Shown here: in pieces, positions 16,334 to 62,277 of the stretch
Position numbering within the stretch: position 1 is the stretch's first letter
Layout of the letters: the number at the start of each line of letters is the position of its first letter
DNA from: Octopus sinensis
Lineage: Eukaryota
Length of the DNA stretch: 64,000 nucleotides
Direction: 5' to 3'
NCBI RefSeq assembly: GCF_006345805.1
Contig: NC_042997.1
Location: 41,044,001 to 41,108,000, forward strand
Program-made: the position numbers and the translations under genes
Notes under the pieces: model-generated
Seen by the model: only the letters and a program-made list of their open reading frames with translations
Databases searched by the model: none
Told to the model about the DNA's origin: nothing

Positions 16334-16386
16334 TCAAAAGTTTGTTTCTGCTGTTCTATCCTCTGTTCCATTACCAGTACTTGAAC
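16334..16386 (-). CDS. Terminal coding exon (G)SSTGNGTEDRTAETNF* of the minus-strand receptor-like gene
   Basis: Acceptor ttacattatgtttccag|GTTCAAG; phase 1, compatible with the donor of exon 27179-27321; TGA at 16334-16336; homologous to 1455-1507. Confidence 0.72.
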
Positions 16387-16599
16387 CTGGAAACATAATG
16401 TAAAAACAAAATATAAAATTTTAAGTACATTAATTACCGGATAGTATTAATTTGTATATATATATGTGTTTATTTCTTACTTTTTGAACTGTTAGAGCTG
16501 TTTTCGTTATGTATCCAGTACAACCCTTAAACAAGTAAATAATATTTTCCTAAACAATAGATCAACGTATTTCAGTTTGTGACTTATTCACAAATATAC

Positions 16600-16905
16600 C
16601 ATGAATGACGATGCCTTTCATGTTACTTCAGCCAATTGACAAGCGCTGATGGAAGAACGGTTCTGCTTTGAGACAAATACACTGTCAAAACAAAGGTCAC
16701 ATCCTGTTTACATGTAAGAACACTTTCCTAAAATCTATCTGTACATCTTGAAAATGGCCAGCGTGTATATTTCACAGAAGACAATACTCGAAAGGTAGAA
16801 CTGAATCCATGAGAAACTACTTTGACAGCATTCTTCAAATTATGCCAATGTGATCTATGTACCAGAACACTGTTGTACGTAGAGATCCCCGTGTTCTCTA
16901 CCTGG
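16600..16905 (+). mobile_element. Helitron Rep/helicase remnant
   Basis: Translation LSVHLENGQRVYFTEDNT...P*ETTLTAFFKLCQCDLCTRTLLYVEIP matches the conserved Helitron VHLENGQRVYF...TTLTAFF.LC...LLY.EIP block. Confidence 0.8.
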
Positions 16906-17812
16906 GCACACAATATATATATGCACACATATATTTATTCATTTATATTTTTTTTAAATAATGAATAACATGACCATCCCGAAATATGTGTGTGTATGTG
17001 TATATATATTTTTACATTTTCTCGATCAATATATAATTTGTTACCAGATTTGACTAGTAAAAATGCTAATGTCTGTTTCGCGGCCCCTATTGTTGCATTT
17101 CCTCAATATTGACCACTACTTAGACATACTGATCGGATGCGCATAAACCTCTTTTATGCTGGAAATAGATAGACCTTATATTGATTTGCGAGTGGTAAAA
17201 TGAAATGAATGGAAACGGAGTGAAAAAAATTATATCATTGTTTGGCAATGGGATATGATTTATTCCTCTTTTATATCTCTTAGAGATGAGTTAAAGCGTA
17301 TGAGCTGTGTGTGTATCTATCGTTTCTTATTCAAAACTTAACATGATCACTTCAAACAAAATGAAATTCCGCCGAGGAAAATTATTTGCAGCACTAAAAA
17401 TCTTTCCTGTTTGAATTAAAGAAAGTACTGGATTTGTGTGAATTTTTATGCCCAGTAGAGTCTGCATCTTCTACTTCTATACAAAATAAGAAGAAAACAT
17501 TTTTGTCCTCGGTTAATTGGTATAATTAAAAAGAAACTGAGCAAAGACAAACAGTTCCGTAGGGACAAGAAACGGAAAAGTGCAAAATAAAATGCTGATT
17601 TATTGAAATTACCCAAGCTTTGAGAAAATGTAAATAAATAGTTGTATGTATGAGAGAGAGGGAGAGAGTCTGTGCGCTTGCGTGCACGCGTGGGTGTCCT
17701 AAGATATCATCCATTGTGGTTGATGATGACGACAACGACGAAGAGGATGGTAATGGTGATTGATAAAGCTAATTATGATGGTAATGGTGATAAAAATGAT
17801 CAGAAACAAGAT

Positions 17813-17912
17813 ACTTTCATTAGGAACTTCATGTGACTTTTCTGAACACCTAAGTTAAGCAATGCCTGGAATTTGTTCAAAACTTGGGAGATATTGCGCC
17901 GCAGTTGACTTT
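17813..17912 (-). pseudogene. Truncated pseudo-exon copy of exon 30338-30492 (SQLRRNISQVLNKFQALLNLGVQKSHMKF)
   Basis: The 5' part and acceptor are deleted, the gtaagt donor is lost by a 4-nt deletion (atacttacttt becomes atacttt), and there is a 1-nt frameshift near the end. Confidence 0.8.
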
Positions 17913-18803
17913 GAACACTTAAGGAAATTAATTGTTTTGTTTCAATTATTTTTATATTCAAATATAGCTTAGAATTGGATCATCATAGCTACAATAACCG
18001 CATTCAGTATGGTTGAGAACAGAATTAATGAAGAAGGCTAGAACTATAAGCGGGTGACTAAAAGTTGGTCTTAAGAACATATTCGTCCAGTACCGTGGCT
18101 TGCCCTCTTTAGCATGTAAGAAATCCACATGGTGGTCTTCCAACCGTGTATAAATTTTTATATACATTTTATATATATATATATATGTAATTTCCTGGCT
18201 GGTTTTAAATTGCGTGTTAGCCACCTTAAATATTTTATAATCTTCACATTGCCATTTTGTGAAATCAATCCCTAATTCCTATGGCATTCTCAATGATACT
18301 GACAGGTGTGAGTTAGCCTCCAGCAGCCGTAATGGAGTGAGCATTGCTGATGAGTATTAACTTCCTATAAGAAATTACCATGCTAATCTAATCCATCGGC
18401 TTACCGTGGGGAATGTTGTCCCCCCCCCTGTCAATGCACCATGTGTTTTTTTATGGCTAAGGTGTCTATGACTATAATTTAACACAATCACTGGTAAAAG
18501 GTTGCAAGACTCAACGAAATGTTTTAGGAAAATAAAAATAAGAAATACGTTGAAATTTTACCGGTGAGTGTGTTGAATTATAAGGCAAAAAAGAAAATGG
18601 CTCTCCCCAGACAGAACAGAATATGCTTCAACACACGAATTCATATAAATAATTTTGGAAACCAAATCCCAAAACGAAATAGTCTATGACTAATATTTCT
18701 AATAATGCTGGTGCTCACTGCACTGTTGTCACCTTTAGTGACTGTGAATTATTTCCCTGTTGGTCTTAAAATGCTGATAGCCGCATTGATTTATATATAC
18801 ACG

Positions 18804-18873
<70 letters not shown>

Positions 18874-18955
18874 TATATTATAAATACGTTCGTATATGTA
18901 AGTATATCGTATGTTGTATATGTATATATTTGTATTTATTTAATTTTCTGAGTAT

Positions 18956-19014
18956 ATTCCACTGATGAAGGCAGAGCATTTCTTATGCAGAGTCAGAAAT
19001 CTGAGATCTGGAAT
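18956..19014 (+). ncRNA. Candidate type I hammerhead ribozyme
   Basis: ATTCCA-CTGATGA-AGGC...GCAT-TTCTT-ATGC...GTCA-GAAA-TC-TGA-GA-TC-TGGAAT: perfect 6-bp stem I, both core motifs, AUC cleavage triplet. Confidence 0.6.
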
Positions 19015-19392
19015 TATCCAGTAATTTTTACTAGTTTATTTTGTCTCTTCGTCTTCTCTCCTGGTGCTATATGAACATTTAATGTGGTTTTAGGATCAAG
19101 ATTTGACTGCTCTTACCCTATATTATAATTTTAAATAATTATTACCTTTGATGGTTTTTATTCCCATGCTGGCCACCTGATAAAACCGATATTTAAATAT
19201 TGGTTTGTTTGTCCTTTGTATAATAAAACTTTGATAAAACACTTAAGCATTTCGTCGAAGGTATGAATTAGTATACTGTGGGTCACAAGTACAACGCTGT
19301 TGATTATGGTGACGTATAATACATGCGATAAAATCGAACGTTTGGACCAAACCAAATAAATTTGAATAAATGTGTTAGAAACTTTTGCTTAC

Positions 19393-19445
19393 CCAGGATA
19401 TTCAACTCTGAATTTTCCAGTCACGGTTAAAAACTCATTCTCCAT
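19393..19445 (-). pseudogene. Duplicate of exon 34739-34791 (MENEFLTVTGKFRVEYPG), frame and splice sites intact
   Basis: cag|ATG...GG|gtaag, 53 nt; its neighbouring duplicate exons are broken. Confidence 0.7.
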
Positions 19446-19533
19446 CTGCAAAAGCCGGATGTGTATATATATATGCATACATTAAATTCAAGAAACAAAG
19501 TTTGATTTAAAAGCGTTGAGATGTACTGAAAGA

Positions 19534-19885
19534 TACAGATGAGGAAATAATTTTACTTCCAAACGCAGGATAATGCTAATAATATAGCATGAACAGGATG
19601 AAATATCCATATTTTGCAGCTAGCTATGAGACTCAAACTCACATCCTGAGATTACGCGTCAAGTGCTTTACCATTAAGCTAAGCTGCCCGAACGACAAAT
19701 TCTGCTGCAAATTTAGGATATATAAATCTAGCTTTAGAAGTAGCGTTATCACAGGGATATGAGTTCAAGTCTCATGACTGATCGCCGACAGATTTTTCTG
19801 CAAAATATGGATAGTTTTTATCCTGTTCAATATATATTATTAACATTATCCTGCGTTTGAAAATAAACTTATTTTCTCCTCTGTA
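19534..19885. mobile_element. Palindromic element with inverted arms of about 85 bp enclosing tRNA-like heads (second copy about 34882-35231)
   Basis: 19534-19619 is the reverse complement of 19798-19885; inner minus strand reads GGGCAGCTTAGCTTAATGGTAAAGCACTTGACGCGTAATC...GAGTTTGAGTCTC. Confidence 0.7.
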
Positions 19886-20113
19886 ATATATATATATATA
19901 TATATAGTAAAATTTGAAGAGTAAAACATTAAAAATAAAAATAACAAAAAACAAAAAGACGTGCGCGTGGAATATATTAGCTGGACGCTCGGTAAAATGG
20001 AGGAAAAGAGAGCGTTTTTAACGTTCCGAGCATAGGTCTCTGTCGGAAAGGAAAACGGAAAAGTTGAGAGAAGGAGAATATTACCAAAAGTACCTGTGTA
20101 GTTACATATGTAC

Positions 20114-20182
<69 letters not shown>

Positions 20183-21219
20183 TGCATGTTCGCGCGCATG
20201 TGTGTGTAAAGATAGGATTAGTGAATAATTTGAGTGGGATTTCATTTACTGTCAGAATCGGAAATTATATCACGGAATATATAAATGATGATCATTGTGT
20301 GAACTTCTTTTACAGACAAAATAGTGGATCAAACACTCTTTTTATTGACCAGCAAAAAATCAGTAAGTTAGAAAGAAGTTTATGTAATAATTTACTATCA
20401 GTAATTGGAGTTTATTGTCTGAATTTCAGGAAACCCAAATACAATTATTTCGCAGTTTTTACTACGGTCTACTGCATGTTCATGTCTCAGTATATTTACG
20501 TGGCTGTATAAAAGTCTATATATACTTACATGCATACAAATTATGAACATATGGATTGCATTAGATTGCCGATGTTCAGTCCACTGCAGAACGAAGGTCT
20601 CAGTATAATCTCTCTACCAACCCTGTCTGATGTGGAGGCCGTGTTTTGACCTCGAGAGTATACTAGTTCGATGAACCTAACAACTCACACTAGCTCAACA
20701 AAGCTTGGCAGGGGAGTAAATACTCATACAGAGGTGTAGTAAAAACGATTAAAGGATGAAGGGCAAAGTCGGCTGCAGTAGAATTTGAACTCAAAATATA
20801 AAGATGGGCGAATTACCGCTTATCCTTTTGCTCGACGTACAAAAGACTTTTCCGGCTCGCCGCAGAATATGCAGGGAATCAAATAATAAATAAATACGCA
20901 TATAATGTTTATCTATATATTTGATTTGAACATGTATTTACAAATGTATGTATTTATGTGTTTAAGCTGATCAGGCTAAACTTTGAAATACCTGTTATCA
21001 TTTAACAAAATCGATATCACCATCTACTAAACGTATTGAGCTCACTCACTATTTAAATTGACGTTTTGCATTTCTTCTATAAAATATGCATGTGTGTGTG
21101 TATGTGATCATGAATGTGTGTATGCATGTGTGCGTGTGGTCAGTGCGTGTGTGTGTGTGCAAACGTGTGTGTATGTGTGAGTGTGCGGAGAAAGAGAGAG
21201 AGGGCAGATATCTACTCAC

Positions 21220-21301
21220 GGCTCTTGATATGTTCTCAGCAGGGATTTTATATTCGTTAACGTTTTTGAAATCAAACGAAATGCGAAGGATTTGGTCCAG
21301 C
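21220..21301 (-). pseudogene. Duplicate of exon 36552-36634 with a 1-nt deletion (WTKSFAFRLI[fs]KNVNEYKIPAENISRA)
   Basis: tag|GC...CC|gtgag sites retained, but 82 nt instead of 83. The deletion is in a T run, so it could be a sequencing error. Confidence 0.75.
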
Positions 21302-21542
21302 CTATGGATTGATATAGAAAATAATTGCTGTATTTATAAATGAGACACACGTCATAGATGCACATAAAACCCACATACGTAGATCAAAATACACATTCAT
21401 AATCAAATATACACTTAAAATACTATATATAAATATATATATATATATATATACGAATGTACATACTCACATTACTACATCTGCATCTACATGTATAAAC
21501 ACATATATAATGCATGTTTGTACACATACACAGTTCCATGTA

Positions 21543-22729: not shown

Positions 22730-25640
22730 TATCTTATTACGGATAATTCGAAAGATAACCGATACCTGGGTAGCAAACTCACAACAGAAAGAACACGGTT
22801 GAAGTTACGACCATAGGGCATATACTCCGTGCCTTAGTGCGGAAATTTGAAGTTTAATTTAATATAATAAGTATAGGAAAGAATGGAGCTGAGCGAAGAT
22901 TTAACAAAATTCCTTTATTTTATTTTCGACATATGTTTCGAAGTCTGCAAAATCCCTAATTCCGAATGAATAAGGAGTCCATTATGCAGCTTCCTCTTCA
23001 GGTAAATCCAGGAACTTCTTTCACCAACAAAATGCACAACAAGTTTTCAGATGACTGCTCACGAGGAACCCATAGCGATAATGATAAATAATGCCTGTTT
23101 ATAGGGGGTGACATCAGATTGGTTGAATGTAAGAGAAGCTGGCAGTTAAAAGAGTTCAAGGTTCAATCAAGGTTGGAGAAGGAAGGAAAAAGAATATTAA
23201 GGTGAGGGAATGTGTACTGTTGGACTGGTGTTTATATTTGATTTATTTTATGAATGAGTGCTCGTATGTATGAGTGTGTATAATTGCCTTAATGTGTGTG
23301 TGTGTGTGTCTGTGAATGCGTGATTGTGTATGTAGAAGGCTGACAGAAAATTAACAGTCAGGAGGTGAAAGGACTGTGTCTGTGTGTTCGAATGTGTCAA
23401 CTTAAGAGGGAGTGGGCAGAGAGCTCACAATAGCAATGACGAGAGACGAGGGGACTACTAGAATTGCTAGCAGCTCTTAGCAATTATGAGAAAATCTTAT
23501 AAACTAAAGGGATGAGATATCACAAATTAATTTTGTAGGAAATCCAGGGGTTATCTATATTAGACTTCATTGGTATGAGTGAAAAGTATGCTTTTTCCAG
23601 TGTAAGCATCTGAAAGATCTCTCGACAATCGAGTTTATTACTTGGCTTCGGGCAAACAGAATATGAAAGAGTTCGAAATTACAGAGGGCACAGATTTTTC
23701 TGCCCTTATCAAACGGTAAGGATACCGACAATATTGACCATTCCAGCGTAAAAGTTGAATTTGCGTTCTTCAAACGCCAGACTAATTAGCTTAGCCCCGT
23801 GGTGTGCTGTTTACTCTTATCTCGGAACGTGGAAAAATGGTTTGAGACCCTTGTGGCTAATTTAGAGGAGGTTGCGCCAATATAGAGGTAGACATCGGAT
23901 CCAGTAGAAATTTTGCACTGGTAAGTGGTGTTTCTAATTTTGGAGTTATTTGATAAGAACCTTAATCTATTGGGATTAGTTTCCGATACTAATACAGCGT
24001 TCTTATTTCTATGATGGGTGAAAAAATTACTGCTGGATTTGGGCACGATACTATTCATCCTATTTTCATTGCTATTTAAGACAATATCACCTGCACATTC
24101 CCTGTTTCTGGGAATGCTGTGATTGTTATTGTCCGTAAAACTACTGTTGTTAAGGACGCTGCTACTATTATTGTTGAGACCCCCTCCGTTAATGTCCTGG
24201 TTAGTGCTCTTATCATTATTACTATTGCTAACGCCAATGCTGGTATGAAGGCTGTTAATATCTGTGCTGTTTCTATTATTATTATTATTATTATTACTAT
24301 ATGCTACGTTGGAATTTGATAGGGCGGTGTCTCTGCTCATGGGTGATGAGACCTTATTTAGCAGCTTATTGTTATGGGAGGCAATTATCTGTGAGAGATT
24401 TTTAGTATTTGAGAAAGCAATCCTTACTTTGTGCGAAATTATAGTGGAGTAATATCTCGAATTTCTGGGAAAATTCCTGGCAATGGCTTGGCGAAACTGT
24501 AAAGGGAGGTTAGATCCGATTTGTTTCCCAAAAGGAATCACAAACCAGATATAGTTTTTTCTGTTCTTGGACTGGCTCGGAGTGTTAACTCTTACATTAA
24601 GGGGGGCATCTCTGTATTGAAGAATGGGTTTTGGCTTACGATGGTCTCCCTTGGACCGCAACTTATTTATGTTAGCTATATTTGTGTCGACATTGCTAGA
24701 GCTACCATCACTACTTATATTATTTATATTATTGTAAGTTAACTTATCCTGATGAGCAAATACTGGTTTCGGAAGGGCCGGGTCGATATATGCTACCTTT
24801 TCCCTATAACCGGATTTTGACAGGGCGGCATTATAGAATTCCGCTTTTTGCTTAAAAATGTCGACGTTGACAGATAAATTTGATAATCTTAAAGAAATAT
24901 TTTTAACTAAATTATCTGTGATAGTTTTTGCGTGGTTACTGGAGATACTGACATATTTTAGGTTTGTGGAAGGTTTATGGTAGGGGCAGTAAGAGTTGCT
25001 ATGCAGATTTAGGGTAACATCTAAGAAATTGGCCTTAGTTAGTTAGTGGTCGAAAACTATGTTCATGCCCATCCTACTAAAGAACCTAGCTAATCTATTT
25101 TTAGTTTTCTGTATCCTTCTGTTCGGGGCATCCTGTAGGTAAAAAAGACAATCGTCTCGATATAGACCGCCGCAGATGTCCGGGAATTGGTCGGCTAATT
25201 CATAGAGAATATAGATTCCGACCAAATCGGCTATCTGAGCGCTATCTGGGCGCTATCTGAGCTTCCCATTGGCACATCGAACTCGTTGGGAGTATCCTTA
25301 CGGACCCATAACTTATCTTCAAACTGTATAAAGGATTTTCTAGCCACTAGAATTATATTAATTTCCTCCCTTGTGAGGCCTGCCTTATTATGCGCGTGCC
25401 ATAGGGCCTTATTGAGTACACTAGGGTTTATCGAGGGGTAGAAATTAGCAATATCGAACTGAATGAACTTAGTGCTGTTTTTATTAGAAATGGAAGAAAA
25501 CCAATTTACGACTTGCGTGGAGCTGGCCCAAAGGTTAAGCTTAAGCTTATTAACTAATATAGGTAAGTCGCAAATTGGTTTATTATTATTTCTCTTTATC
25601 ACAGGTTGTGTAGGAGTTCCTGGAGGCTTGCATTGTGGGA
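22730..25640 (-). mobile_element. Penelope-like retroelement (RT plus GIY-YIG endonuclease), 5'-truncated and frameshifted
   Basis: FIQFDIANFYPSI, FDVPMGSSDSAQIA, GLYRDDCL and NFLDVTLNL RT motifs; TYQCKI...YIGATS...RVSNH and WSIL...CALCNFE GIY-YIG motifs. A short internal duplication at 25231-25262 breaks the frame. Confidence 0.92.
22920..23008 (-). ncRNA. Hammerhead ribozyme motif at the 3' end of the Penelope element
   Basis: Minus strand: CTGAAGA-G-GAAG-CTGCA...(TCCTTATTC/GAATTAGGGA hairpin)...TGCAG-A-CTTC-GAAAC-ATAT-GTC. Palindromic stem III (ACATATGT) and a GUC site; stem I is weak. Confidence 0.7.
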
Positions 25641-27178: not shown

Positions 27179-27321
27179 CATCATCAATGCCTTTGCTCTG
27201 TTCTGCATTGTAACATTGAGACATGTCTGGTTCTTGCCAGATACCAGTAAACGGTGAACACTTTTGTGATGACAGGTTTTGACTTGATGCCATTTCTGGA
27301 TGCCCCATCGTTCTGGAAGAA
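27179..27321 (-). CDS. Exon, second half of the HRM domain: (C)SSRTMGHPEMASSQNLSSQKCSPFTGIWQEPDMSQCYNAEQSKGIDD(G)
   Basis: tttttcag|T...G|gtgag, 143 nt, phase 2 to 1. G.W..PD.S.C is the HRM C-terminal signature. Confidence 0.88.
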
Positions 27322-28744: not shown

Positions 28745-28859
28745 CAATTCCTGGTGGCTACATATGCATGACATGGGATCTCTGCAGTAGTTCCTATTTT
28801 TGTCATTGGCCAAGAAAAAGCTCGATTGTTAGTTGATGTTGTGCTTTCATCACAAACCA
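28745..28859 (-). CDS. Exon, first half of the HRM domain: (M)VCDESTTSTNNRAFSWPMTKIGTTAEIPCHAYVATRN(C)
   Basis: ttctttttcag|TG...TG|gttcgt, 115 nt, phase 1 to 2. C...WP.T..G.....C....A.R.C is the HRM signature of secretin and adhesion GPCRs. Confidence 0.9.
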
Positions 28860-29400: not shown

Positions 29401-29462
<62 letters not shown>

Positions 29463-30160
29463 ATATTTACTTATATATTCTTAAAAAATAATAAATAAAA
29501 TAGAAATATAGGTGTGTGCATATGTATATATATATTTTATATTTTCTCAAGCAATATAACTGATTACGGGATATGACTACTCAGAATGCTAGTCTGTTTC
29601 GCGGCCTCTAGTGTTGGATTTCGTCAATATATTGATCACTCTTTAGACATACTGACCGGAAGCGCAAAACCTAATGTACGCTAGAAATAGGTAGATGTTA
29701 TATTGATTTGGCGATGGTAAAAGGAAATGAATAGAAACGACGTGAAAATATATCATTTTTCGGCAATGGGATATGATTTGTTCCTCTTTTATATCTCTTA
29801 GAGATGAGTTAAAGCGTATTAGCTGTGTGTGTATCTATCGATCCTAATTCAAAAATTAATATGATCACTTCGAACAAAATGAATTTTCACCGAGGAAAAT
29901 TATTTGCAACATTAAATAATTTTCCTGTTTGAATTAAAGAAAGTACTGGAATTGTGTGAATTATTCTGCCCAGTAGAGTCTGCATCTTCTACTTCTATAC
30001 AAAATAAGAAGAAAACATTTTTGCCCTTGGTTAATTGGTATAATTAAAAAGAAACTGAGAAAAGACAAACAGTTCCGTAGGGTCAAGAAACGGTAAAGCG
30101 CAAAATAAAATGCTGTCTTTTTAAAATTATCCAAGCTTTGAGAAAATGTAAATAAATAGT

Positions 30161-30209
<49 letters not shown>

Positions 30210-30337
30210 GAGAGAGTCTATGTGCTTGACATCATCTACTGTGGTTGATGATGACGACAACGGCGAAGAGTTTGGTGATTGATGAAGCTAATTATGACGG
30301 TAATGATGACAAAATTAATAAGAAACACGATACTTAC

Positions 30338-30492
30338 TTTCATCAATGAATTTCATGTGGCTTTGCGGAACTCCTAAGTTAAGCAATGCCTGGGATTTGT
30401 TCAAAAGTTTAGAGATATTGCGCCGCAGTTGACTTTCAGTCATTTCGCTAAATACTGTACAGTAAATAGCAAATATTTTATTTCTGTTTGAG
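30338..30492 (-). CDS. Exon, SEA-like part 3: (G)SNRNKIFAIYCTVFSEMTESQLRRNISKLLNKSQALLNLGVPQSHMKFIDE
   Basis: ttttatttcag|C...A|gtaagt, 155 nt, phase 2 to 1, open frame that matches both neighbours. The domain label is an inference. Confidence 0.85.
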
Positions 30493-30621
30493 CTGAAATA
30501 AAAATAAATACATACATGTATGTCGGTATGTATGCATGTATGTAGCTAGCTAGCTAGATAGATAGAAATAAACATACATTGATACGCACGTCCAGACCAA
30601 TCCTACGCACTAATACTCTCT

Positions 30622-30660
<39 letters not shown>

Positions 30661-30893
30661 ATACATACTAATACATACACCAACCCTATACATACACACA
30701 TCCAGACCCCTCCCACGCACTTTTAGCTGGTCCCTCAACCCTTTTATCAACCCTATTATCTCCCCTTATTTCGCTCTCGCGTCTCATGTTTGATCTTTGA
30801 CCTCTGGCCGAAATCAGATCGCCATGTTGATTCGTTAGCTACTGCACGCATTTTTTTTCTCTCCTTCTTTCTGTGTTTTTCTCTCTCTGTGTA

Positions 30894-30931
30894 TCTTTCT
30901 GTTGAAGAGCGTAGGCTCGAAACGTTAAAGA
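30894..30931 (+). ncRNA. Hammerhead-like motif with variant core (TTGAAGA); related degenerate reverse copies near 20015-20050, 35378-35410 and 38095-38135
   Basis: TCTTT..G-TTGAAGA-GC-GTAG-GC-TC-GAAACGTT-AAAGA. C3 of the core is replaced by T. Confidence 0.4.
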
Positions 30932-31028
30932 CTTGTTTTATTTATATTTCCTGAGCGCCATACTAATACAATTGTTCGTTTGTTTTCCACCTGCCTTCGT
31001 CTTTTGTTTATTTTCATAAAGCTTCCCG

Positions 31029-31068
<40 letters not shown>

Positions 31069-32021
31069 TCGTTTAAAAGCTGCCCTATTGATCCTTGGGC
31101 CCAACAATGACACCATGCATTGAGTACATATTAAATTTCATGAAACATGAATGTTTCTCAAGCAATGAACAATTTTCTTCAAAGCAATGATATAATTTGT
31201 CGGTCGAAACTTATTGCAAAGCTTCATGATAAACCAGAGTACCACCACCATCATCACCGTATCTGCCATACACACGCCATCCAGACTTCTGACGCCATCA
31301 CCATCAATACTTTTCATCACTTTCCCCTCCACCACTATCACCACTGTCTTTCACATCGCTTTCTATCACTATATTCAAATATAGCTTAGAATTGGATCAT
31401 CATAGCTACAATAACCGCATTCAGTATGGTTGAGAACAGAATTAGTGAAGGCGGCTAGAATTATAAGCGGGTGACTAAAAGTTGGTCTTAAGAACATATT
31501 CGTCCAGTACCGTGGCTTGCCCTCTTTAGAATGTAAGAAATCCACATGGTGGTCTTCCCACCATGTATAAATTTTTATATACATTTTATATATATATATA
31601 TATGTAATTTCCTGGTTGGTTTTAAATTGCGTGTTAGCCACCTTAAATATTTTATAATCTTCACATTGCCATTTTGTGAAATCAATCCCTAATTCTATGG
31701 CATTCTCAATGATACTGACAGGTGTGAGTTAGCCTCCAGCAGCCGTAATGGAGTGAGCATTGCTGATGAGTATTAACTTCCTATAAGAAATTAGCATGCT
31801 AATCTAATCCATCTGGCTTACCGTGGGGAATGTCGTCCCCCCTGCCAATGCAAAGAGACCATATATCTTTTTGTGGCTAAGGAGTTTATGACTGATATTT
31901 CTAACAATGTTGGTGCTCATTGCACTCTTTTCACACTTAGTGACTGTGAATTATTTCCCTGCTGGTTTCAAATTGCAGATAGCCACCTTAATTTATATAC
32001 ACACACCCATATATGTGTGTG

Positions 32022-32081
<60 letters not shown>

Positions 32082-32103
32082 CGTATGTATAGGTGTGCGT
32101 GTT

Positions 32104-32138
<35 letters not shown>

Positions 32139-32221
32139 ATATAGATGTATATATATATATATACATATATATATAACACACACACACATATATATATATA
32201 CACATATATATATATATTTAC

Positions 32222-32272
<51 letters not shown>

Positions 32273-32368
32273 CATATATATTATATACATATATATATAT
32301 ATGTTATATATATATATAATACTATAATACATATATATATATATATATATTATATATTATATATAATA

Positions 32369-32457
<89 letters not shown>

Positions 32458-32459
<2 letters not shown>

Positions 32460-33514: not shown

Positions 33515-33527
33515 ATATATATGTATG

Positions 33528-33599
<72 letters not shown>

Positions 33600-33852
33600 T
33601 CAATGTGAGGATAAAATTCTTTTCGAAAAAAAAACATTTTCTCGAAAAAAATTTTATCAATGGCCAGCATATTAAAAAATACCTTTAACGGTTAAATTTA
33701 TAAACAATTCATAAATGAGGGCAAAGGAAACAAAATTCTAATGCCAAATATGCCGAAAAATTGGACATATTGTCCATTAACCATATAATTTTTTCACAAT
33801 ACGCACGCTACTCGAAAAAAGGCTGACAGAAATTTCTAAAAAATTCCATTAT

Positions 33853-33910
33853 TACCATATCGGACCGATTTCAGAGTTAGCTACTAAGAGCCCTCTCTTC
33901 GTCAGTAATA
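33853..33910 (-). ncRNA. Type I hammerhead ribozyme (minus-strand copy)
   Basis: TATTA-CTGACGA-AGAG...CTCT-GAAA-TCGG-T-CCGA-TA-TGGTA. Confidence 0.75.
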
Positions 33911-34243: not shown

Positions 34244-34301
34244 TATCACTGACGAAGAGAGGGCTCTTAGTAGCTAACTCTGAAATCGGTCCGATATGGT
34301 A
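34244..34301 (+). ncRNA. Type I hammerhead ribozyme (plus-strand copy)
   Basis: TATCA-CTGACGA-AGAG...CTCT-GAAA-TCGG-T-CCGA-TA-TGGTA: complete core with stems I, II and III; predicted cleavage after AUA at 34296. Confidence 0.8.
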
Positions 34302-34452: not shown

Positions 34453-34526
<74 letters not shown>

Positions 34527-34738: not shown

Positions 34739-34791
34739 CCACAGTGTTCAACTCTGAAATTTCCCGTTACGGTTGAAAACTCATGCTCCAT
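34739..34791 (-). CDS. Exon, SEA-like part 2: MEHEFSTVTGNFRVEHC(G)
   Basis: tttgcag|ATG...GG|gtaag, 53 nt, phase 0 to 2; splice sites conserved in the duplicate at 19393-19445. Confidence 0.85.
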
Positions 34792-36551: not shown

Positions 36552-36634
36552 GGTTCTTGATATGTTCTCAGCAGGGATTTTATATTCGTTGGACATTTTA
36601 AAAATCAAACGAAATACGAAGGATTTGATCCAGC
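36552..36634 (-). CDS. Exon, SEA-like part 1: (G)WIKSFVFRLIFKMSNEYKIPAENISRT
   Basis: ccatag|GC...ACC|gtgagt, 83 nt, phase 1 to 0; joins the Ly6 exon to the next exon in frame. Confidence 0.85.
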
Positions 36635-42294: not shown

Positions 42295-42476
42295 CAATGA
42301 AATCATTCTTGTTACATAAGTGTCCGACGCAACAACTAGTACAAGCCGTGCTATTCGTCCGTTTATTGCATGTAAGGGTATTGTTTCTCATAGCTTCAAC
42401 ACATTTTCTGTATGTGCTGCAGGACCTTTCAGTCTTCAGTTTAGCACCGTTCATTGATTGCGAATCGGCATACAGG
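42295..42476 (-). CDS. Exon, Ly6/uPAR three-finger domain second part: PVCRFAI[frameshift]MNGAKLKTERSCSTYRKCVEAMRNNTLTCNKRTNSTACTSCCVGHLCNKNDFI(G)
   Basis: ttattacag|CCT...G|gtaagt; CCxxxxCN terminal signature. At 182 nt it does not fit phase 0 to 1, which implies an indel near 42455-42460. Confidence 0.82.
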
Positions 42477-44416: not shown

Positions 44417-44508
44417 CTCTGCTCCTGGACAGCTTGTCACATAGGAATCATTGCAGATCATTCCTGAACATGTTTGACACTGTAAATTCCGTTGAAATAA
44501 CGAGTAAT
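44417..44508 (-). CDS. Exon, Ly6/uPAR domain first part: (N)YSLFQRNLQCQTCSGMICNDSYVTSCPGAE
   Basis: tattctgtag|AT...GAG|gtaaac, 92 nt, phase 1 to 0; L.C..C....C......CP pattern of three-finger domains. Confidence 0.88.
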
Positions 44509-46400: not shown

Positions 46401-46559
46401 GTGTATGTATTACGTATGCATGTCATTATTCACTGTTATTTCCTAAATCTACGGATCCTTCATTGGAATTTCAACAGCATCAATGTTACCATCATCTCGG
46501 AACTTTCTACCAACATATCCATGCATAGTCTTCTGTTCATAGATACTCATCCGTTCATC

Positions 46560-47610
46560 TAATGATACGTTGCGGTAGAGACGTGCGACTTCTTTGAGCA
46601 TGTAGTCTATATTATCAGATAAGGAATGTTGCTCAAGGAGCTGCCTTCCAAGTCATATGAATTATGCAAACTTGGTCAAGAGATGCACTTCGACATTTGT
46701 GGTTATAAGATGTTACCGAAAGGATATGATACGACATTCAAAGACATTTGGCATCGATATTAAGCCCCTGCCGCCTTGTTTTCGTTTTAGGGAGAGGCGG
46801 TCTTCATCACTGTTTATGTGGAAATTATGTGTACTTGTCTGTATTTTCCGGGTTTTCACATAAACAGCTCGGATCTCATCAAGTGTCCAATAAAACAGCC
46901 CAAATGTTAGTATGAGTACTTGCACAGCAAACACGTTGTGGGCCAATGTTTTATTGAATGCATAAATTTCTGAGGTCGAAACTTTATTTATTCAGCTGTA
47001 ATGTTCTTTGTTTATACTTTAATGGCACCTGTAACTTAATGGCACCTGTAACACAATGGCACCTGTAACATAATGGTACCTGTAAAAAAGCACTTGTTTT
47101 GTTACAGGGGCTGTTGTGAGATATATTTTCATCCACCCCTAGATATCTGTAACATTGCTCATCAGATATAGGCGAAAAAGTCAGGTCATTGATGGCGATG
47201 TTGCTAGTCTGGTTTACATTTTTCCCCCTTTTCACAATCATATAACATTTATCCTGAACAAACGCCAACCCTACATTTTTTGAGAATCTTATAACTTGGT
47301 CAAAGCTCTTTTTCATCTCATCCATATTCTTTGCATAAAGTTTTAAGTCATCCACAAAGAAACAGTATTCGATTTTGGAATTTCTGTTTCCTTGTGAACC
47401 AATGGGATGTCCTTAACATGAATGACATAGGGTTTACAGAAAGTACAAACAACATCACAACGAGGTTGTCCCCTTGGAATATGCCTTTGCGATATTGTAT
47501 TCTGTCAGTGATAATCACTCTTTGTGTTTAATTTCATGATGTTGTCCCACAATGGAATCAGGTCAGCTATGGCTTTGATTATGGCTCACAGGAAATTTAG
47601 CCAGATGAAG
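46560..47610 (-). mobile_element. Degenerate R4/Dong-like RT fragment, containing a 17-bp x4 tandem repeat at 47020-47087
   Basis: FVDDLKLYAKN, YRYLGVDEN and DRLSLKRKQGGRGLIS motifs; GIFQGD-like motif near 47467-47485. Confidence 0.82.
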
Positions 47611-49677: not shown

Positions 49678-49835
49678 TTTGACATTGCGAATAATCCAGT
49701 ATAGGTATTCGTTTCCCTGAGCCTTCCTGACACGTGCCAAAGACAGCCACAGTTCTGTTATAGACTTTTTTGATATAATTTACGAAGGCTGGCAAGTGGC
49801 ATCCACACCTCATAAGGTTATTGTTTAGGAGGTAA
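49678..49835 (-). CDS. Exon, LRR C-terminal cap: (I)YLLNNNLMRCGCHLPAFVNYIKKVYNRTVAVFGTCQEGSGKRIPILDYSQCQ
   Basis: ttattacag|T...A|gtaagt, 158 nt, phase 2 to 1; N...CxC.L......C......C four-cysteine LRRCT pattern. Confidence 0.9.
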
Positions 49836-52595: not shown

Positions 52596-52667
52596 ATATT
52601 AACTATGCTGGGAAGGAATAAGAAAGCGCCATCTTCATATTTTTCTATTGGGTTGTTTTGCAAATAT
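52596..52667 (-). CDS. LRR exon 5 (last LRR): YLQNNPIEKYEDGAFLFLPSIVN(I)
   Basis: ctttttcag|A...AT|gtaag, 72 nt, phase 2-2, LxxNxIxx.xxxaF..L pattern. Confidence 0.88.
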
Positions 52668-54922: not shown

Positions 54923-56322
54923 AGTTATACTTTAGACTGTGGTTCTTCAAGGTGGTTCTTACGCTAGCTCCTACTGCATGTGCAATCATTCCTTTCTCCT
55001 AATTGTTGTTCTCAGGGTGTTGGGTGGGTAGGGTTCAGCCACATCAGCGCTCAGTGTTGCATTTATTTACAGCTGAAGTGATGGTGGGTAATCTAAGCAT
55101 CTGTGATCTGGTGGGGCAGAATATATAGTCTAAGAACGAGACCTGGATCACGCGTGTTGACCTCACAGAACTACACTTCACTTTTCACAGATAATCTCAT
55201 TACATTATACCCCAGAAAAATCGATGTCAATAGATGGGCAGAGGGAATCATGTCCTTAGTGTCCACTACACAACATGTGAAGAACTTGGAGTGGCCGCAA
55301 ATACTCATTTTATTGAGGATGTCCTCAGTGCTAACATAGACGAAAAAGAAGAAGAAAAGAAGAAGAAGAAGAAGAAGAGAAGAAGAAGAAGAAGAAGGGC
55401 GAAGAAGAAGATAAAGAAGAAGAACAAGAACAAGAAGAACAAGAATAAAAAGAAGAAGAACAACACGGGCATGATAAAGTAAAAAAGAAAAGTAAAAAAT
55501 GAAAAGGTGGAGAAACAATACGAAGAGGAAAACGAAGAAGAAGAAGAAGAAGAAGAGGAGGAAAAGAAGAAAGAGAAGGAGGAGTTAGGAAGAATATGAA
55601 GGAGAAGGGGAGGAGGGAAAAAAGCACAACAACAATAGGTAGGGGAGGAGGAGGAAGCCGAGGAGAAAAGAAGAAGAAGAAGGAGAAGGAGAAGGCAAAG
55701 ATGAAGAAGAATAAGGAGAAAAAGAGGGAGAAGTAAAAGAAAAAGAAGGTGGAGGAAGAGAAAGAGAAGAAGAAGCAGAAGCAAAAGGAGAACAAGAAAA
55801 AGAAAAGAAAGAAGAATGAAGAAGAAGAAGTAAAAATAAGAAGAAGAAGAAATAGAAGACGAAGATGAGGAATTCGAAGTTGAATGACAAAATCAAAACA
55901 CTAAGGAGAAGATTGAAATAAGAAATGAAGGAGGAGACAAATTATAAAATAATGGAATATTATAGTCACATTTCACACAGAATTACACTTATATATGAAC
56001 ATACATATATACTTCAGCTACAAATATTTGATGCAAACATGTAAACTCACAAACGTTACCATTTCTAATACAAATTCATATCAAAATCATTGAAATTTGG
56101 GGAACAAAAATGAGTTATTGAGATGCGAATTGAAACAAAGCAACTACAATAAAGGAACATTATATTTTTCCTATTATTTCACTTTCTCTCTCAAATTCTC
56201 TCTCTTTCTTTCACATTGTCTCGCTCTCTCATATTCTCTTTGCATCTTCCTAAATCGTGTTCATTCTACAAATTCGAATTATTACTTTCGGAAAATCGTA
56301 TCAAGAAACTGAACGAACTTAC

Positions 56323-56394
56323 AATCTCTCTAAATTCGAAAGCCCCATGAATACACCTTCTTTGATGGTTGAAATGTTGTTCCATCGCAGATCT
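56323..56394 (-). CDS. LRR exon 4 (type B): DLRWNNISTIKEGVFMGLSNLER(L)
   Basis: gctatag|A...TT|gtaagt, 72 nt, phase 2-2, typical 24-aa LRR. Confidence 0.93.
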
Positions 56395-58091
56395 CTATAG
56401 CAGTAAAGAAAGAGTAAATTAGATAATATGGAAAATATTTGTGATACAACATCAAACACTGTGACTTCAGAATGAAAGGAAGAAAAACAAGAAAGATAAC
56501 GAGGAAGAAAGAAGAAGAAGAAGAAGAAGGCGAGGATAAAGAAGAAGAAGAAGAAGAAGAAGAAGAAGGCGAGGATAAAGAAGAAGAAGAAGAAGAAGAA
56601 GAAGGAGAAATGGGGAGGAAGTGGAAGAGGTGGAGGAGGAGGAGAGGTGGGGAGGTTAGGAGGAGGACAAAGGAAGGGATGACTGAGGAGGGGCAGCTGG
56701 GGGTAGCAGCAGAAGGAGCAGTAAGAGCAGGAGAAAGAGAATAAGAGGAAGAATTGGCAGAGAATGGAAAAGAGGGAGACGAGTGCCGAAGCAGAAAGTA
56801 CAGAGAAGAAAAAGAAGAAAAAGAAGAAAAAAAAGAAGAAGAAGAAGAAGAAGATAACGAAGAGGAAGAAGAAGAAGAAGACGAAGAAAAGAAAGAAGAA
56901 GAAGAAGACGAAGAAGAAGAAGAAAAAGGAGAAGAAGTAGAAGAAGAAGAAGAAGAAGAAGGAGAAGAAGAAGAGGAAAAAAAGAAAAAGAAGAAGAAGG
57001 AGAGTGTGGAGGAGAGTGAGGAGGAGAGCTGGGGAGGTTAAGAGGAGGACAAAGGAAAGGATGACTGAGGAGGGGCAGCTGGTGAAGGCAGCAGAAGGAG
57101 CAGTAAGAGCAGGAGAATTAGCTTAAGAGGAAGAACTGGCAGAGAATGGAAAAGTGGGCGACTAGTGACGAAGCAGTAATTACAGAGAAGAAAAAGAAGA
57201 AGAAGAAGAAGAAGAATGAGAAGAGGAAGAAGACAAAGAAGATACAGAAAAATAAGAAGAAAAAAAGAAGGGGTAGAAAAGAAGTAAAAGAAAAAGCGGA
57301 AAATGTTAAGAAGACGAAGCGGAGAAGAAGAAGACCTAGAAGGTAAAGAAGTATCAGAATAAGAGAAGATAAAAAAGAAGAAGCACAAGAAGAGAAAGGG
57401 GAAATAGGAGAAGAACAAGAAGAAGAAGACAAAGAAGAAGGAGAAAAGGAGAAGGAGAAGAAGAAGGAGGAGGAGGAGGTGGAGGAGGAGGCGAAGAGGA
57501 AGAAGGTCGAGGAGTAGGCGAAGAAGAAAAAGAAGAAGAAAAAGAAGAAGAAAGAAGAAGTAGAGGAAGGAGAAGAAAAAGAAGAAGAAAGAAGAAGTAG
57601 AGGAACAAGAAGAAGAAGAAGAAAGAAGGAGAAGGAGAAGAAGGAGCAAGAGAAGAAGAAGAAGGAGAAGAAGAAAAAGAAGAAGAAGTAGAATAATAAT
57701 AATAAGAAGAAGAAGAAGAAGAACAAAAACTACAACAACAATAACAAAACATTTATTTCGGTGGAAGTGTGGATAAATAACCACACGGCACCACAGAATC
57801 AACAGAACAATGTGTAACAAAATAGTAGCTAAAACTTACATTAATAGTGCAGATACATACATACATATGAACATACACATATATATTTTCAGGAATAACA
57901 TTTTTATGAAGACAATTATCAACTTACAGTCATTGACATGTTCAGACTCAATCAAATAAATATAACACGAATATGAGAACTGAATATGATTTACTGTATT
58001 AGAGAGTGAGAAAACATGGAAATAAGGGGATATTAAATTTAAAGACATAGTATATTACTCATGTATAAACGACAACATTGAAAGAACTTAC

Positions 58092-58163
58092 AATTCTTGT
58101 AAGTTATGAAGGCCTTGAAACATCTCTTTTTGAATCCTCGAAATTTTATTGGTGGAAAGATAT
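58092..58163 (-). CDS. LRR exon 3 (type A): YLSTNKISRIQKEMFQGLHNLQE(L)
   Basis: gcttcag|A...TT|gtaagt, 72 nt, phase 2-2. Confidence 0.93.
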
Positions 58164-59963
58164 CTGAAGCAGGAAACAATATTGGTTAGATTGACATAGC
58201 GTGAATTGCGATAACATATTCAATATTGTTCTTTATGAAAAGGGACAATATTACAGGAAAATAATACAAGAAGACGATAGGAAAGAGATTGAGGAGAAGA
58301 CAAAGAAGGGGAAGATGGGAAGGGGAAAAAAGAAAACAATGACGAAAAGGATGGGGAGAATTGTAGAAGATGGAGGAGTTGGAGAAGGAGGAGGGGAGGA
58401 GAAGAAGAATGAGGACGGGGGAGGAAAATAAGATGCAGGAGGGGAGGAAAATAGGAGGAGGAGAAGGAGCAGAAGGTAGAGTAGAAGAAGTAGATGTAGA
58501 AGATCAAAAAGAGGAGTAGGGTAAGGAGACGACGAAAAAGTGGAAGAAAAAGAACAAGGAGGGGAAGAAGAGGAAAAAGAAAAAGAAAAAGAAGAAGAAG
58601 AAGAGGAAGAAGAAGAGCAGGCAAAAAAGAAGATGAAGAAATAGAGAGAGGTGGTGAAGGATGAAGAGAATAAAAAAAAGAAGATAAGAAGAAGAAGAAG
58701 GAGGAGGAGGAGGCGGAGGAGAAATAGAAAAAGAAGAAAAAGAAGAAGTAGACGAAAAAGATGAAGAAGAAACAGAAGGAGGATGACGAGGGGGAGGGGA
58801 AGTGGAAGAATTACAAGGAGAAGAAGAAGAAGAAGACGATGGAAGAGAAGAAGGAGAAGAAGAAGAAGAATTAGGAGGAGGAGAAGAAGAAGAAGAAGAA
58901 GTCGTAGTAGTAGTAGTAGTTGTAGTAGAAGAAGAAGAAGAAGAAGAAGAAGAAGAAGAAGAAGAAGAAGAATATGAAGCGGAAGAAGACGAAGAAAAAG
59001 AAGAAAAAAGAAGAAGTAGAAGGAAGAGGAGGCAAAAGGAGGAAGAGGAGGGTGAAGGGGAAGCAGAAGTAAGAGAAGAAGAAAAAGAAAAAGAAGGAGG
59101 ATCTGGAGGAGGAGGAGGAGGAGGAGAGAGAATAACAGAAAGAAGATAAGAAGTAGAAAGAGGAGGAGGAGAAGTAGATGAAGAATTAGAAGGTAGAAGA
59201 AAGAGAAATAGAAGAAGTAGAAGAAATTAAGTAGAAGAAAGAAAAGAAAAAGAAAAAGAAAAAGGAGAAAGACAAGGATGAGAAGTAGAAGGAGAAGAAT
59301 GAGCAGAAGAAGAAGAAGAAGAAGAAGAAGAAGAAGAAGGAGACGAAGAAGATGAAGAAGACGGAGGAGGAGGAGGAGAAAAAGAAAAAGAAGAACAAGA
59401 AGCAGAAGAAAACAAGAAGTAAAGGAAGAAGAAGAAAAAGAAGAAGAAAGAGATGAAGGAGTAAAAGAAGAAGGAAGAGGAGGAAAAAAGAAGGAGGAGG
59501 GGGATGAAGGTGAAGAAGAAGAAGGAGAAATAGAAAAAGAAGAAAAAAGAAGGACGCGGAGGAGGAGGCGAATAACAAAAAGATAAGAAGAAGGAAGAGG
59601 AAGAGGAGGAGGAGGAGGAGGAGGAAGAGAAGTAGATGTAGAAGTAGAAAGTAGAAGTAGAAGAAGAAAAGGAAGGAGGAAGACGAGGAGGAGTAGTAGA
59701 AGAAGGAGAAGAAGAAGAAGAAGAAGAAAAAGGAGAAGAAGGAGAAGTTGGAGAAGAAGATGAAGAAGAAAAAGGAGCAGGAGGGGGTAGGGAGTGGGAA
59801 GACGAAAATTACAAGAAGAAAGAGGAGGAGTCTGGGGAGGAAAATAAGAGGAGGAAGAGAATTACAAGAAGAAAATGAAGAAGAAAACAAAAAAATTGAA
59901 GAAGAAAAGAAGGAGGAGGAGAAGAAGAATAGGAGAAAAGAAGTAGAAGAAGGAGAAGAAGAA

Positions 59964-60021
<58 letters not shown>

Positions 60022-60542
60022 GAGAAGGAGAAGGAGAAGAAGAATATGAAGAAGAAGAAGATAAAGAAGAAGGAGAAGAAAAAGAAGAAGAAAAAAAATG
60101 AAGAAGGAGAAGGAGAAAAAGAAGAAAAAGAAGGAGGTCGAGTTGGTGGAGGCGAATAACAAAAAGAAGATAAGAAGAAGGAAGAGGAGGAGGAAGGGGA
60201 AGAGAAGTAGGTGAGAAAGTAGAATTTAGAAGAAGTAGAAGAAAAAAAGAAGGAGGAAGCCGAGGAGGAGTAGCAGAAGAAGAAGAAGAAGAAGGAAGAC
60301 GAGGAGGAGGAGTAGAAGAAGAAGAAGAAGGAGAAGGAGAGGAAGAAGAAGAAGAAGATGATGAAGATGAAAAAGGAGCAGAGGGGGTGGGGAGGGGGAA
60401 GAATTACAGAAGAAAGAATACATTCTGGGGGGAAATAAGAGGAAGAAGAAATTAACAAAAGAAGAAAATGAAAAGAAGAAAAAATTAGAGAAGGAGAAGT
60501 GAAGGAGAAGTAGAAGAAAAAAGAAGAAGAAGATAAGAATAA

Positions 60543-60573
<31 letters not shown>

Positions 60574-61438
60574 AGAAGAAGAAGAAGAAGAAGAAGAAGA
60601 AGAAGAAGACATTGAAAATCATGTTGTTCAAGACGAAACTGAAAATGTTCTCAAAATATCAGGAAATAATTCAAGGATAGAGCGATAAATTTTGGTTGAG
60701 ACATGGCTGAAAAATCAGGGAATATACGGAATCAGTAATCAACATATTCAAATGCACTTATACGCATTCTTATATTCATAATATCAGCGACGGAATGTGC
60801 TATGCACACTCACATCACACATATTCCCACTCACCCTTGTGGAAATATGGTGAGAGAGATTATTTATTTCATATCGATTCATTGTCACAAGAATATTAGA
60901 AAACACACGCTTACAAGAAATATTTCAGCAGTTTAATTGTATCAGGCCAAATATTCCAGTTTACAAGTACAGTAAGTATTTCAGGTATACAGATAGAATG
61001 TATGTGACTATATTATTCGAATATATATTTTCCGCTTCCACTCCAGTTGCTCTATTACAGAAATAACGTGAAATGAATGACAAAATTCGAAGTTGAATGA
61101 GAATATTGAAATAAGAAATGGAGGAGGATGCAAAATATAAAATAAAGGAATAATATCGTCACATTTCACACAGAACTACACTTATATATGAACATACACA
61201 TATACTTCAGCTACAAATATTTTTCTTATTATTTCACTTTCTCTCTCAAATTCTCTCTCTTTCTTTCACATTGTCCCGCTCTCTCCTATTCTCTTTGTAT
61301 CTTCCTAAATCGTGTTCATTCTACAAATTTGAATTGATTTTGTTCGGTGCAATCTGAAATTTTATACATTTGTGAGCTTATATATCAGCATCAATTATTA
61401 CTTTCGGAAAATAGTATCAAGAAACTGAACGAACTTAC

Positions 61439-61510
61439 AATCTCTTTAAATTCGAAAGCCCCTTGAATGTACCTTCATTGATGGTTGAAATGTTGTTCAA
61501 ATTCAGATAT
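61439..61510 (-). CDS. LRR exon 2 (type B): YLNLNNISTINEGTFKGLSNLKR(L)
   Basis: gctatag|A...TT|gtaagt, 72 nt, phase 2-2; visible at the end of ORF 61435-61866. Confidence 0.93.
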
Positions 61511-62205
61511 CTATAGCAGCAAAGAAAGAGTGAAATAGATTTTACGGAAAATATATGCAGAAGGAGCAGGAAGAGCAGGAGAATAAGAGGAAGAATTGGC
61601 AGAGAATGGAAAAGAGGGAGACCAGTGACGAAGCAGAAAGTACAGAGAAGAAAAAGTAAGAAGAAGGAGAACAAGAAGAGGAAGAAAAGTCGGAGGAAGA
61701 GGCGAAGTAGAAGAAGAAGTTTGAGGAAGAGGCGAAGAAGAAGAAGAAGTAAAGAAGAAGAAGAAGAAGAAGAAGAAGTAGAAGAAGGAGGAGGAGAAGG
61801 AGAGGAAGAAGTAGAAGAAGAAGAAGAACAACAACAACAACAAAAACTATAACAATAACAAAACATTTATTTCGGTGGAAGTGTGGATATATAACCACAC
61901 GGCACCACAGAATCAACAGAACAATGTGAAAGAAAATAGTAGCTAAAACTTATATTAATAGTGCAGACACATACATACATATGAACATACACATATATAT
62001 TTTCAGGAATAATATTTTTATGCAGACAATTATCAACTGACAGTCATTGACATGTTCAGACTCAATCAAATAAATATAACACGAATATGAGAACTGAATA
62101 TGATTTCCTATATTAGAGAGTGCGAAAACATGGAAATAAGGGGATATTAAATTTAAAGACATCGTATATTACTCATGTATAAACGACAACATTGAATGAA
62201 CTTAC

Positions 62206-62277
62206 AAATACTGTAAGCTTAGAAGGCCTTTAAACATCTCTTTTTCAGTCCTTGAAATATTATTGTCGGAAAGATCT
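62206..62277 (-). CDS. LRR exon 1 in window (type A): DLSDNNISRTEKEMFKGLLSLQY(L)
   Basis: gcttcag|A...TT|gtaagt, 72 nt, phase 2-2. Upstream exons are presumably beyond position 64000. Confidence 0.93.

Follow-up and report, generated by a model that had tools for sequence, protein, structure and literature searches.

A frameshifted, probably pseudogenised copy of an ectodomain-only octopus subfamily derived from adhesion GPCRs, with likely secreted, LRR-variable members

Adhesion GPCRs (G protein-coupled receptors) have been known as signalling proteins of the membrane whose ectodomain is shed by cleavage. Among them, ADGRA2 and ADGRA3 are conserved single-copy genes whose products carry an N-terminal leucine-rich repeat (LRR) and LRRCT region, an Ig domain between the LRRCT and the HRM, a GAIN domain followed by the seven-transmembrane (7TM) region, and a class I PDZ ligand, that is, an X-S/T-X-hydrophobic end on a cytosolic C-terminus. 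LRR cassettes of 24 amino acids also form the lamprey variable lymphocyte receptors (VLRs), which are assembled somatically and of which VLRB has a secreted form as well. Here, we describe a gene on the minus strand of a 64,000-nucleotide window of Octopus sinensis DNA (contig NC_042997.1; G000:C1:41044001-41108000 in our numbering), an AT-rich, microsatellite-rich stretch of animal DNA. We consider it fairly probable that this gene is a frameshifted, probably pseudogenised copy of an octopus subfamily consisting of the ectodomain only, the intact members of which undergo splicing and probably leave the cell as variable binders. If true, such a multiplied ectodomain-only family with a varying LRR binding face would put the parts of adhesion GPCRs to a different use.

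The receptor-type paralogues of this gene have the LRR-LRRCT, HRM, GAIN-7TM and class I PDZ motif in common with ADGRA2 and ADGRA3, which the initial annotation of this DNA had cited for comparison. However, LU (three-finger) and SEA domains hold the place of the Ig domain, for which there was no match in Pfam scans or in a PDB search with an LU profile, and the genes form a fast-turnover array rather than single copies. The nearer structural relative is ADGRG6/GPR126, in which SEA is followed by HormR (PMC6954182; PDB 6V55; statements on published work refer here and below to the parts of each source that were covered). Besides this domain order, GPR126 gives the best Foldseek match, and databases name family members 'G6-like'. 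Contrary to the octopus family, GPR126 has CUB and PTX domains (PMC6954182), both absent in Pfam scans of the family proteins, where LRR and LU are found here. In addition, the (R/K)-X-K-R furin motif is absent from the octopus SEA loop, and the window gene has neither GAIN nor 7TM.

LU-domain GPCRs are known in starfish, molluscs and arthropods (PMC11595613, PMC13719153). One of them, starfish LyAr2, is annotated as 'adhesion GPCR G2-like' and has an LU domain close to LYPD1 (PMC11595613); compared by description, it resembles the octopus proteins in carrying LU in the ectodomain of a 7TM protein, LYPD1 being the best structural match here too. The covered parts of both papers contain no SEA, LRR cassettes or membrane-less forms, and the main text of the 2026 survey (PMC13719153), as far as covered, does not mention octopus or cephalopods. 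On sequence grounds, the family itself appears to be the octopus adhesion-GPCR expansion described as group 3 by Ritschard et al. in 2019 (PMC6408891), since the listed group 3 member A0A0L8HDZ7, which is P0112 in our set, shares a 90% cluster with P0105, a protein found by the LU profile at E 8.5e-9. Both share LRRs, tandem clusters and sequence kinship, and group 3 also includes one squid LRR protein (PMC6408891). That study chose its proteins by their 7TM domain, so that membrane-less forms could not enter, and its InterPro table, in the part covered, has no hits for 'UPAR', 'Ly6' or 'SEA'. Thus, of the novelty first attributed to this gene, the expansion had already been published and LU-bearing GPCRs were in print; the part that may be new is the membrane-less, LRR-variable subfamily, of which no description was found in the literature searched (subscription papers and some supplements lie largely outside its coverage). 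The family is easily missed: databases label its members 'slit-like', 'chondroadherin-like' or 'G6-like', and 7TM-based surveys cannot see the membrane-less forms.

Seventeen exons of the window gene were recovered by coordinates, all on the minus strand: five LRR exons, one LRRCT, two LU, three SEA1, two HRM and three SEA2 exons, and a last exon. The LRR exons, each of 72 nt and in phase 2-2, lie at 62206..62277, 61439..61510, 58092..58163, 56323..56394 and 52596..52667, followed by the LRRCT exon at 49678..49835 (phase 2-1) and the LU exons at 44417..44508 (phase 1-0) and 42295..42476 (182 nt). The SEA1 exons a, b and c occupy 36552..36634 (phase 1-0), 34739..34791 (phase 0-2) and 30338..30492 (phase 2-1), and the HRM exons a and b 28745..28859 (phase 1-2, with a GTTCGT donor common to 9/9 aligned paralogues) and 27179..27321 (phase 2-1). 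What comes next is GAIN in the receptor-type genes and SEA2 here, with exons a, b and c at 21220..21301 (82 nt), 19393..19445 (phase 0-2) and 17815..17917, the last of them with a 5' end shortened in all membrane-less copies. The 53-nt last exon (16334..16386) ends in ETNF-stop and is homologous to the cytoplasmic last exon of the receptors. A signal-peptide/LRRNT exon lies outside the window, 4.7 kb beyond the first LRR exon (G000:C1:41110946-41111149). Fourteen of these exons had been listed in the initial annotation and are real, with AG acceptors in all 14, GT donors in all 13 that have one, and the same start phases (2,2,2,2,2,2,1,0,[1],0,2,1,2,1); the single indel among them, in the second LU exon, is also confirmed. 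The list had overlooked the three exons of SEA2, two of the lesion sites and the signal exon, and was silent on the absence of any membrane-crossing part in the exon chain. The LRR, LU, SEA and HRM exons of the window are 78-100% identical to paralogue models.

Of the hallmarks of adhesion GPCRs, the window gene retains the long HRM-bearing ectodomain and lacks GAIN/GPS and 7TM. A tblastn search with 52 homologues over 264 kb around the gene found neither a GAIN nor a 7TM exon on the gene's strand. Ten sister loci (on contigs C5, C14, C25, C29 and C9761), picked because their coordinates pointed to the membrane-less form, all have the HRM, the three SEA2 exons and the last exon, which in the C5 locus sits just past the stretch read; from SEA1 or HRM to the end, none of the ten contains a GAIN or 7TM match or an N gap. 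Judged by coordinates across the genome, the 56 HRM-exon matches divide into 16 that are followed by a last exon before any 7TM exon, 25 for which a 7TM exon comes first and 15 with neither, a tally that rests on the best 40 of 61 last-exon candidates. The same end is found in the models P0015, P0004, P0010, P0016, P0021, P0022 and P0026, which come from two Octopus species and contain no transmembrane helix and no GPI (glycosylphosphatidylinositol) signal; P0035 from O. bimaculoides, also devoid of 7TM, was left out of the count, as its model may be incomplete. Upstream searches at six membrane-less loci, among them the window, revealed a signal-peptide exon in four; in the remaining two, the stretch held a gap or ended first. 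That the missing GAIN-7TM block is an artefact of assembling a repeat-rich array is hardly credible: even though the assembly has many unplaced near-duplicate contigs and scattered indels, the end recurs in ten gap-free loci out of ten on several contigs, in the models of a second species and in spliced RNA contigs.

These contigs come from three sequencing runs (from three studies) that a tool guessed to be RNA, none being on record as such, with one DNA run for comparison. The joint between HRM b and SEA2 a (27178-21300) is present in all three runs, those between the SEA2 exons (21220-19445 and 19393-17917) in two of three each, and the one from SEA2 c to the last exon (to 16386) in two of three, with 19 paralogue letters between; the third run has a matching 9-letter loose end at this joint. 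None of the HRM-SEA2-last exon joints occurs in the DNA run. Low depth over the introns and GT-AG ends at the joints are in keeping with spliced RNA. In these contigs, HRM runs into SEA2 and not into the last exon, a direct HRM-last exon joint not being among the RNA-contig joints shown. This bears on the membrane receptor first proposed, in which HRM would lead directly to a PDZ tail. HRM b could join the last exon in frame (phase 1), and ETNF is a class I PDZ motif that ends real family receptors such as P0030; nevertheless, as the gene has neither a transmembrane nor a GAIN exon, the models show no hydrophobic end of the GPI type and the RNA joints run through SEA2, such a receptor is most improbable. 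As for the PDZ tail, the ETNF-stop does fit the class I motif, but the C-terminus is predicted to be extracellular rather than cytosolic, because GAIN, GPS and transmembrane exons are all missing from the gene.

The second line of evidence is the variation among the repeats, each of which is encoded by one 72-nt exon. Two types of LRR exon were compared, and in both the changes concentrate on four of the 23 codons, which carry 51/95 and 32/51 of the minimum amino-acid changes and which we take, from the LxxLxLxxNxI pattern, to be the positions exposed on the concave sheet. When six candidate codons were compared first, nonsynonymous differences (pN) came to 0.44 and 0.31, versus 0.07 and 0.04 elsewhere; the choice was narrowed to the four concave codons after the six-codon table had been seen, and these have a pN of 0.59 and 0.44 (31 and 24 exons). 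By comparison, synonymous differences (pS) at the other codons amount to 0.18 and 0.11, and the flanking introns differ by 4-6%. The ratio of concave pN to the pS of the other codons is thus 3.3 (bootstrap 2.7-4.0) and 3.9 (2.6-6.9), and 2.9 and 2.1 in the membrane-less loci alone (17 and 16 exons), all of these values being pairwise counts on exons picked by similarity and not codon models. The remaining LRR codons have pN/pS of 0.3-0.7, and the framework codons of the membrane-less loci of 0.34-0.73. In six membrane-less loci, with arrays of up to 14 exons, none of the 44 genuine LRR exons has a stop (one false match out of 45, with a stop and outside the gene, was dropped; 33 of the exons are distinct and fall into the two repeat types). 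For one gene, annotation alone lists 13 isoforms of 337-409 amino acids that differ in steps of 24.

A single exon or cassette for each 24-residue LRR is also the rule in VLRs, whose hypervariable concave face is seen here too, and in LRR genes of the brown alga Ectocarpus, where one exon per repeat goes together with repeat shuffling, diversifying LRR change and gene birth and death (PMC3341825). Contrary to these systems, of unrelated origin, the octopus repeats are germline, ordinary spliceosomal exons placed on the ectodomain of an adhesion GPCR. In the window itself, the LRR introns between 55338 and 63180 are full of long AGA/GAA microsatellites, and a unit of two LRRs is present twice (about 55881-59103 and 61074-63187, 74-96% identity by block), features that could promote the gain and loss of repeats.

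The identity of the domains does not rest equally on all tests. LRR matches to Pfam LRR_8 are far above the cut-off in the paralogues, and the HRM call is upheld only weakly, at Pfam E-values of 0.001-0.01 under the curated cut-off. For LU, a profile built from 18 LU exons and searched against PDB sequences, with matches kept to E 10, gave five matches, all of them LU-fold proteins (ACVR1 twice, LYPD1 and LYPD6 twice), the best being ACVR1 at E 0.002 and LYPD1 at E 0.038 (full-length). Weak matches to Pfam UPAR_LY6_2 are found in 14 of the 18 profile members, and a cysteine pattern ending in CC-x4-CN is conserved in the family alignments (A2, A3). In the structure prediction of paralogue P0086 (predicted local distance difference test, pLDDT, 67), the top nine Foldseek rows are three-finger proteins, with LYPD1 the best at E 0.087 and none below 0.001. 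For SEA, the model of P0026 (mean pLDDT 52) shows a ferredoxin-like fold in SEA1 at a pLDDT of about 72-87, and its sole Foldseek match under E 0.001 is the ectodomain of GPR126 (E 4.5e-5). The VIA comparison, which covered the SEA part only, gave Z 6.8 against GPR126 (root-mean-square deviation, rmsd, 8.7 over 135 aligned residues); model residues 140-235 matched ferredoxin-like folds at Z up to 9.0 (rmsd 2.5, 86 aligned) and MUC16-type SEA at Z 6.7 (rmsd 2.9, 89 aligned). In Pfam scans, P0106 alone matches SEA, at E 0.013 and below cut-off, and none of the other proteins scanned does; phmmer with P0026 against PDB returned no matches, and the ESM Atlas held no usable match for the LU segment or P0026. 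We therefore regard the LU and SEA calls, predicted from sequences and models, as well supported by several converging weak tests and no single strong one; of the domains first proposed, LRR, LU and SEA stand, as does HRM on weaker matches, the expected structures being seen clearly for the ferredoxin-like SEA and faintly for the three-finger fold.

These domains belong to a family whose adhesion-GPCR origin and tandem expansion, as first suggested, are borne out. The O. sinensis assembly contains at least 56 HRM-exon and at least 77 LU-exon matches, clustered on contigs C29 and C27, and at least 71 7TM-exon matches, all of them lower bounds in which some contigs may be duplicates and the weakest 7TM-exon matches are other GPCRs. 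The full receptors have the order LRR-LU-SEA-HRM-GAIN-GPS-7TM and often end in ETN(F/L/I) (P0030, P0033, P0046); in P0030, GPS is matched at E 5e-14 and 7tm_2 at E 1.5e-41. The same order is found in Argonauta (P0106) and in P0103, a protein of 1155 amino acids; given its presence in Argonauta, the LRR-LU-SEA-HRM architecture is older than the octopus tandem array. All named homologues are octopod, and of the 26 representatives found in a database search with the LU profile, 24 fall in named octopod or family-type proteins and two are short, with no named match outside octopods, which does not imply absence elsewhere. Family copies are about 90-96% identical in DNA, and their modules are shuffled: P0001 has three tandem LU domains, P0032 has SEA-HRM repeats, P0013 is a receptor without HRM, and P0026 is a chimera in which a receptor-type front carries the membrane-less end. 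Single loci contain LU exons in tandem, four at C29:1825885-1842654 and three at C29:2086950-2101851 (G000), and in the models P0003, P0006 and P0017 SEA2 c is skipped and the last exon is read in a different frame, ending in FKYW.

As for the origin of the membrane-less genes, the LU, SEA and HRM modules begin and end in phase 1 and the last exon starts in phase 1, so that unequal crossing-over could keep the frame into the old last exon. Such an event in the tandem array may have duplicated SEA and deleted HRM-GAIN-7TM, and the module shuffles of the family are of the kind to be expected from these phases. The window keeps a second, internal copy of the SEA1 cassette, introns included (16913..21402), whose blocks are 81-94% identical to parts of 29442-36735. 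The SEA1-SEA2 homology ends at 16913 and that to the last exon of the receptors starts at 16423, 490 bases away, a gap that brackets the join that would have removed HRM-GAIN-7TM. The resulting ectodomain genes would be secreted by means of their signal peptide, secretion and topology being predicted from sequence, and their PDZ motif would be a relic, since PDZ proteins of the cytosol lie out of reach of a secreted protein. The receptor paralogues, in turn, would keep GAIN, 7TM and a PDZ motif in the cytosol.

Several observations weigh against this reading of secreted, selected binders. Pairwise pN/pS counts are not independent. Outside the LRRs, where divergence is low, pN/pS is below 0.5 in three of eight exons and about 1 or above in the other five (two of these five exon sets mixed SEA1 and SEA2 copies, the reason why a pooled 3'-exon value of 1.31 was discarded). 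Judging by the indels in 7/29 other LU exons, there are many broken or poorly assembled copies. That the runs are RNA is a tool's guess, and the joints derive from paralogues and not from the window copy. SEA2 lacks one strand and folds poorly in the P0026 model (pLDDT <50), and, by LU-SEA1, the membrane-less forms do not make one clade (three changes; bootstrap not settled). Finally, an 'adhesion GPCR G6' has been found in skin mucus (PMC11431876), which could be a shed receptor ectodomain, and that report, in the part covered, names no membrane-less form. Part of these observations would be expected if the membrane-less copies were by-products of an unstable array, young, transcribed and drifting, with LRR variation inherited by exchange from receptor-type genes, an explanation also suited by the three lesion sites of the window copy, the chimeras such as P0026 and the high identity between copies. 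We find it doubtful, though worth keeping in mind: the membrane-less form is modelled in two species and present in up to 16 loci, its LRR exons are free of stops and have framework codons at pN/pS 0.34-0.73, and its joints are spliced in RNA contigs.

If the membrane-less forms are indeed secreted binders, the concave face of their LRRs would bind extracellular ligands of varied kinds, for which microbial or other non-self surfaces at skin and gill are the likeliest candidates, and the soluble forms would capture the ligand or compete with the signalling paralogues, as binders or decoys. The role in immune or chemical recognition that was suggested at first is still inferred, now with the support of the concave-face variation. 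Alternatively, the secreted proteins may be real and serve self-recognition or wiring of the arm nervous system, as ligands or decoys for adhesion partners. [quoted passage not shown] Even so, rapid birth and death, pseudogenes and concave-face diversification in very recent duplicates fit an arms race better (compare PMC3341825), and expression in C. minor includes gill and skin (PMC6408891). The wiring role thus seems unlikely, and, because of this arms-race pattern, defence or non-self recognition at skin and gill is favoured over it at modest odds. A Death domain, reported within group 3 (PMC6408891), is present in the cytoplasmic part of the family receptor P0044 (PF00531) and would fit an immune link. 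More tentatively, membrane receptors and secreted, antibody-like ectodomains may make up a paired system that gives skin, sucker and gill a large germline repertoire; the LRR surfaces of these ectodomains would owe their diversity to exon duplication, positive selection, gene-to-gene exchange and cassette splicing. For cephalopod immunity or contact chemosensing, the ectodomain-only family offers a concrete, testable candidate.

The window copy itself carries three private lesion sites. LU exon 2 is 2 nt short near 42459, a frameshift absent from 29 other copies, 22 of which have 184 nt and seven other indels; SEA2 exon a is 1 nt short near 21258, a lesion absent from 10 aligned copies; and SEA2 exon c is 1 nt short near its end and has a damaged donor. 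The lesion in LU exon 2 alone would be expected to end the protein after the LRRCT. From the sequence, the copy is probably a pseudogene, real decay being favoured because multi-base losses occur outside homopolymers, and this judgement is tempered because indels are common in the array; an assembly error has a smaller yet appreciable chance. At position 21268, all RNA depth shows the paralogue letter, a weak hint that the window copy is not among the expressed ones, in SEA2 rows that do not separate the window allele from its paralogues. With the copy probably dead, the value lies in the family. The gene also looks chimeric by sequence: its signal exon (L011:2946-3149) is of the P0034 type (68% identical) and its exons from LRR to HRM are of the P0015 type, the genes of which carry a different signal exon (33% identical to that of the window gene).

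Tail to tail with the window gene lies a fragment of a receptor-type gene on the plus strand, whose last exon (1455..1507) ends in ETNL-stop. A second copy of this exon (4534-4586, plus strand) results from a 3.1-kb tandem duplication (874-3981 and 3953-7061, 99.6% identity) that is either very recent or an assembly artefact. Fourteen kb before the ETNL exon stands a lone 7TM exon of the family (L022:7404-7793; G000:C1:41031404-41031793, plus strand); no further exon of that gene was found within 87 kb upstream, and an assembly gap lies between. A similar mix is seen on C14, where 7TM exons at 63241 (plus) and 122023 (minus) flank a membrane-less gene. The window also holds decayed retrotransposon pieces at 8379-9343 (minus strand), about 24000-25640, 41100-41900 and 46500-47500, recognised by a zf-RVT match in 8379-8951 (E 1.7e-6) and otherwise judged by eye, as well as a 126-bp unit present in three copies with 99% identity (11537-11911) and two nested inverted-repeat structures (33589-34430 and 37217-37982).

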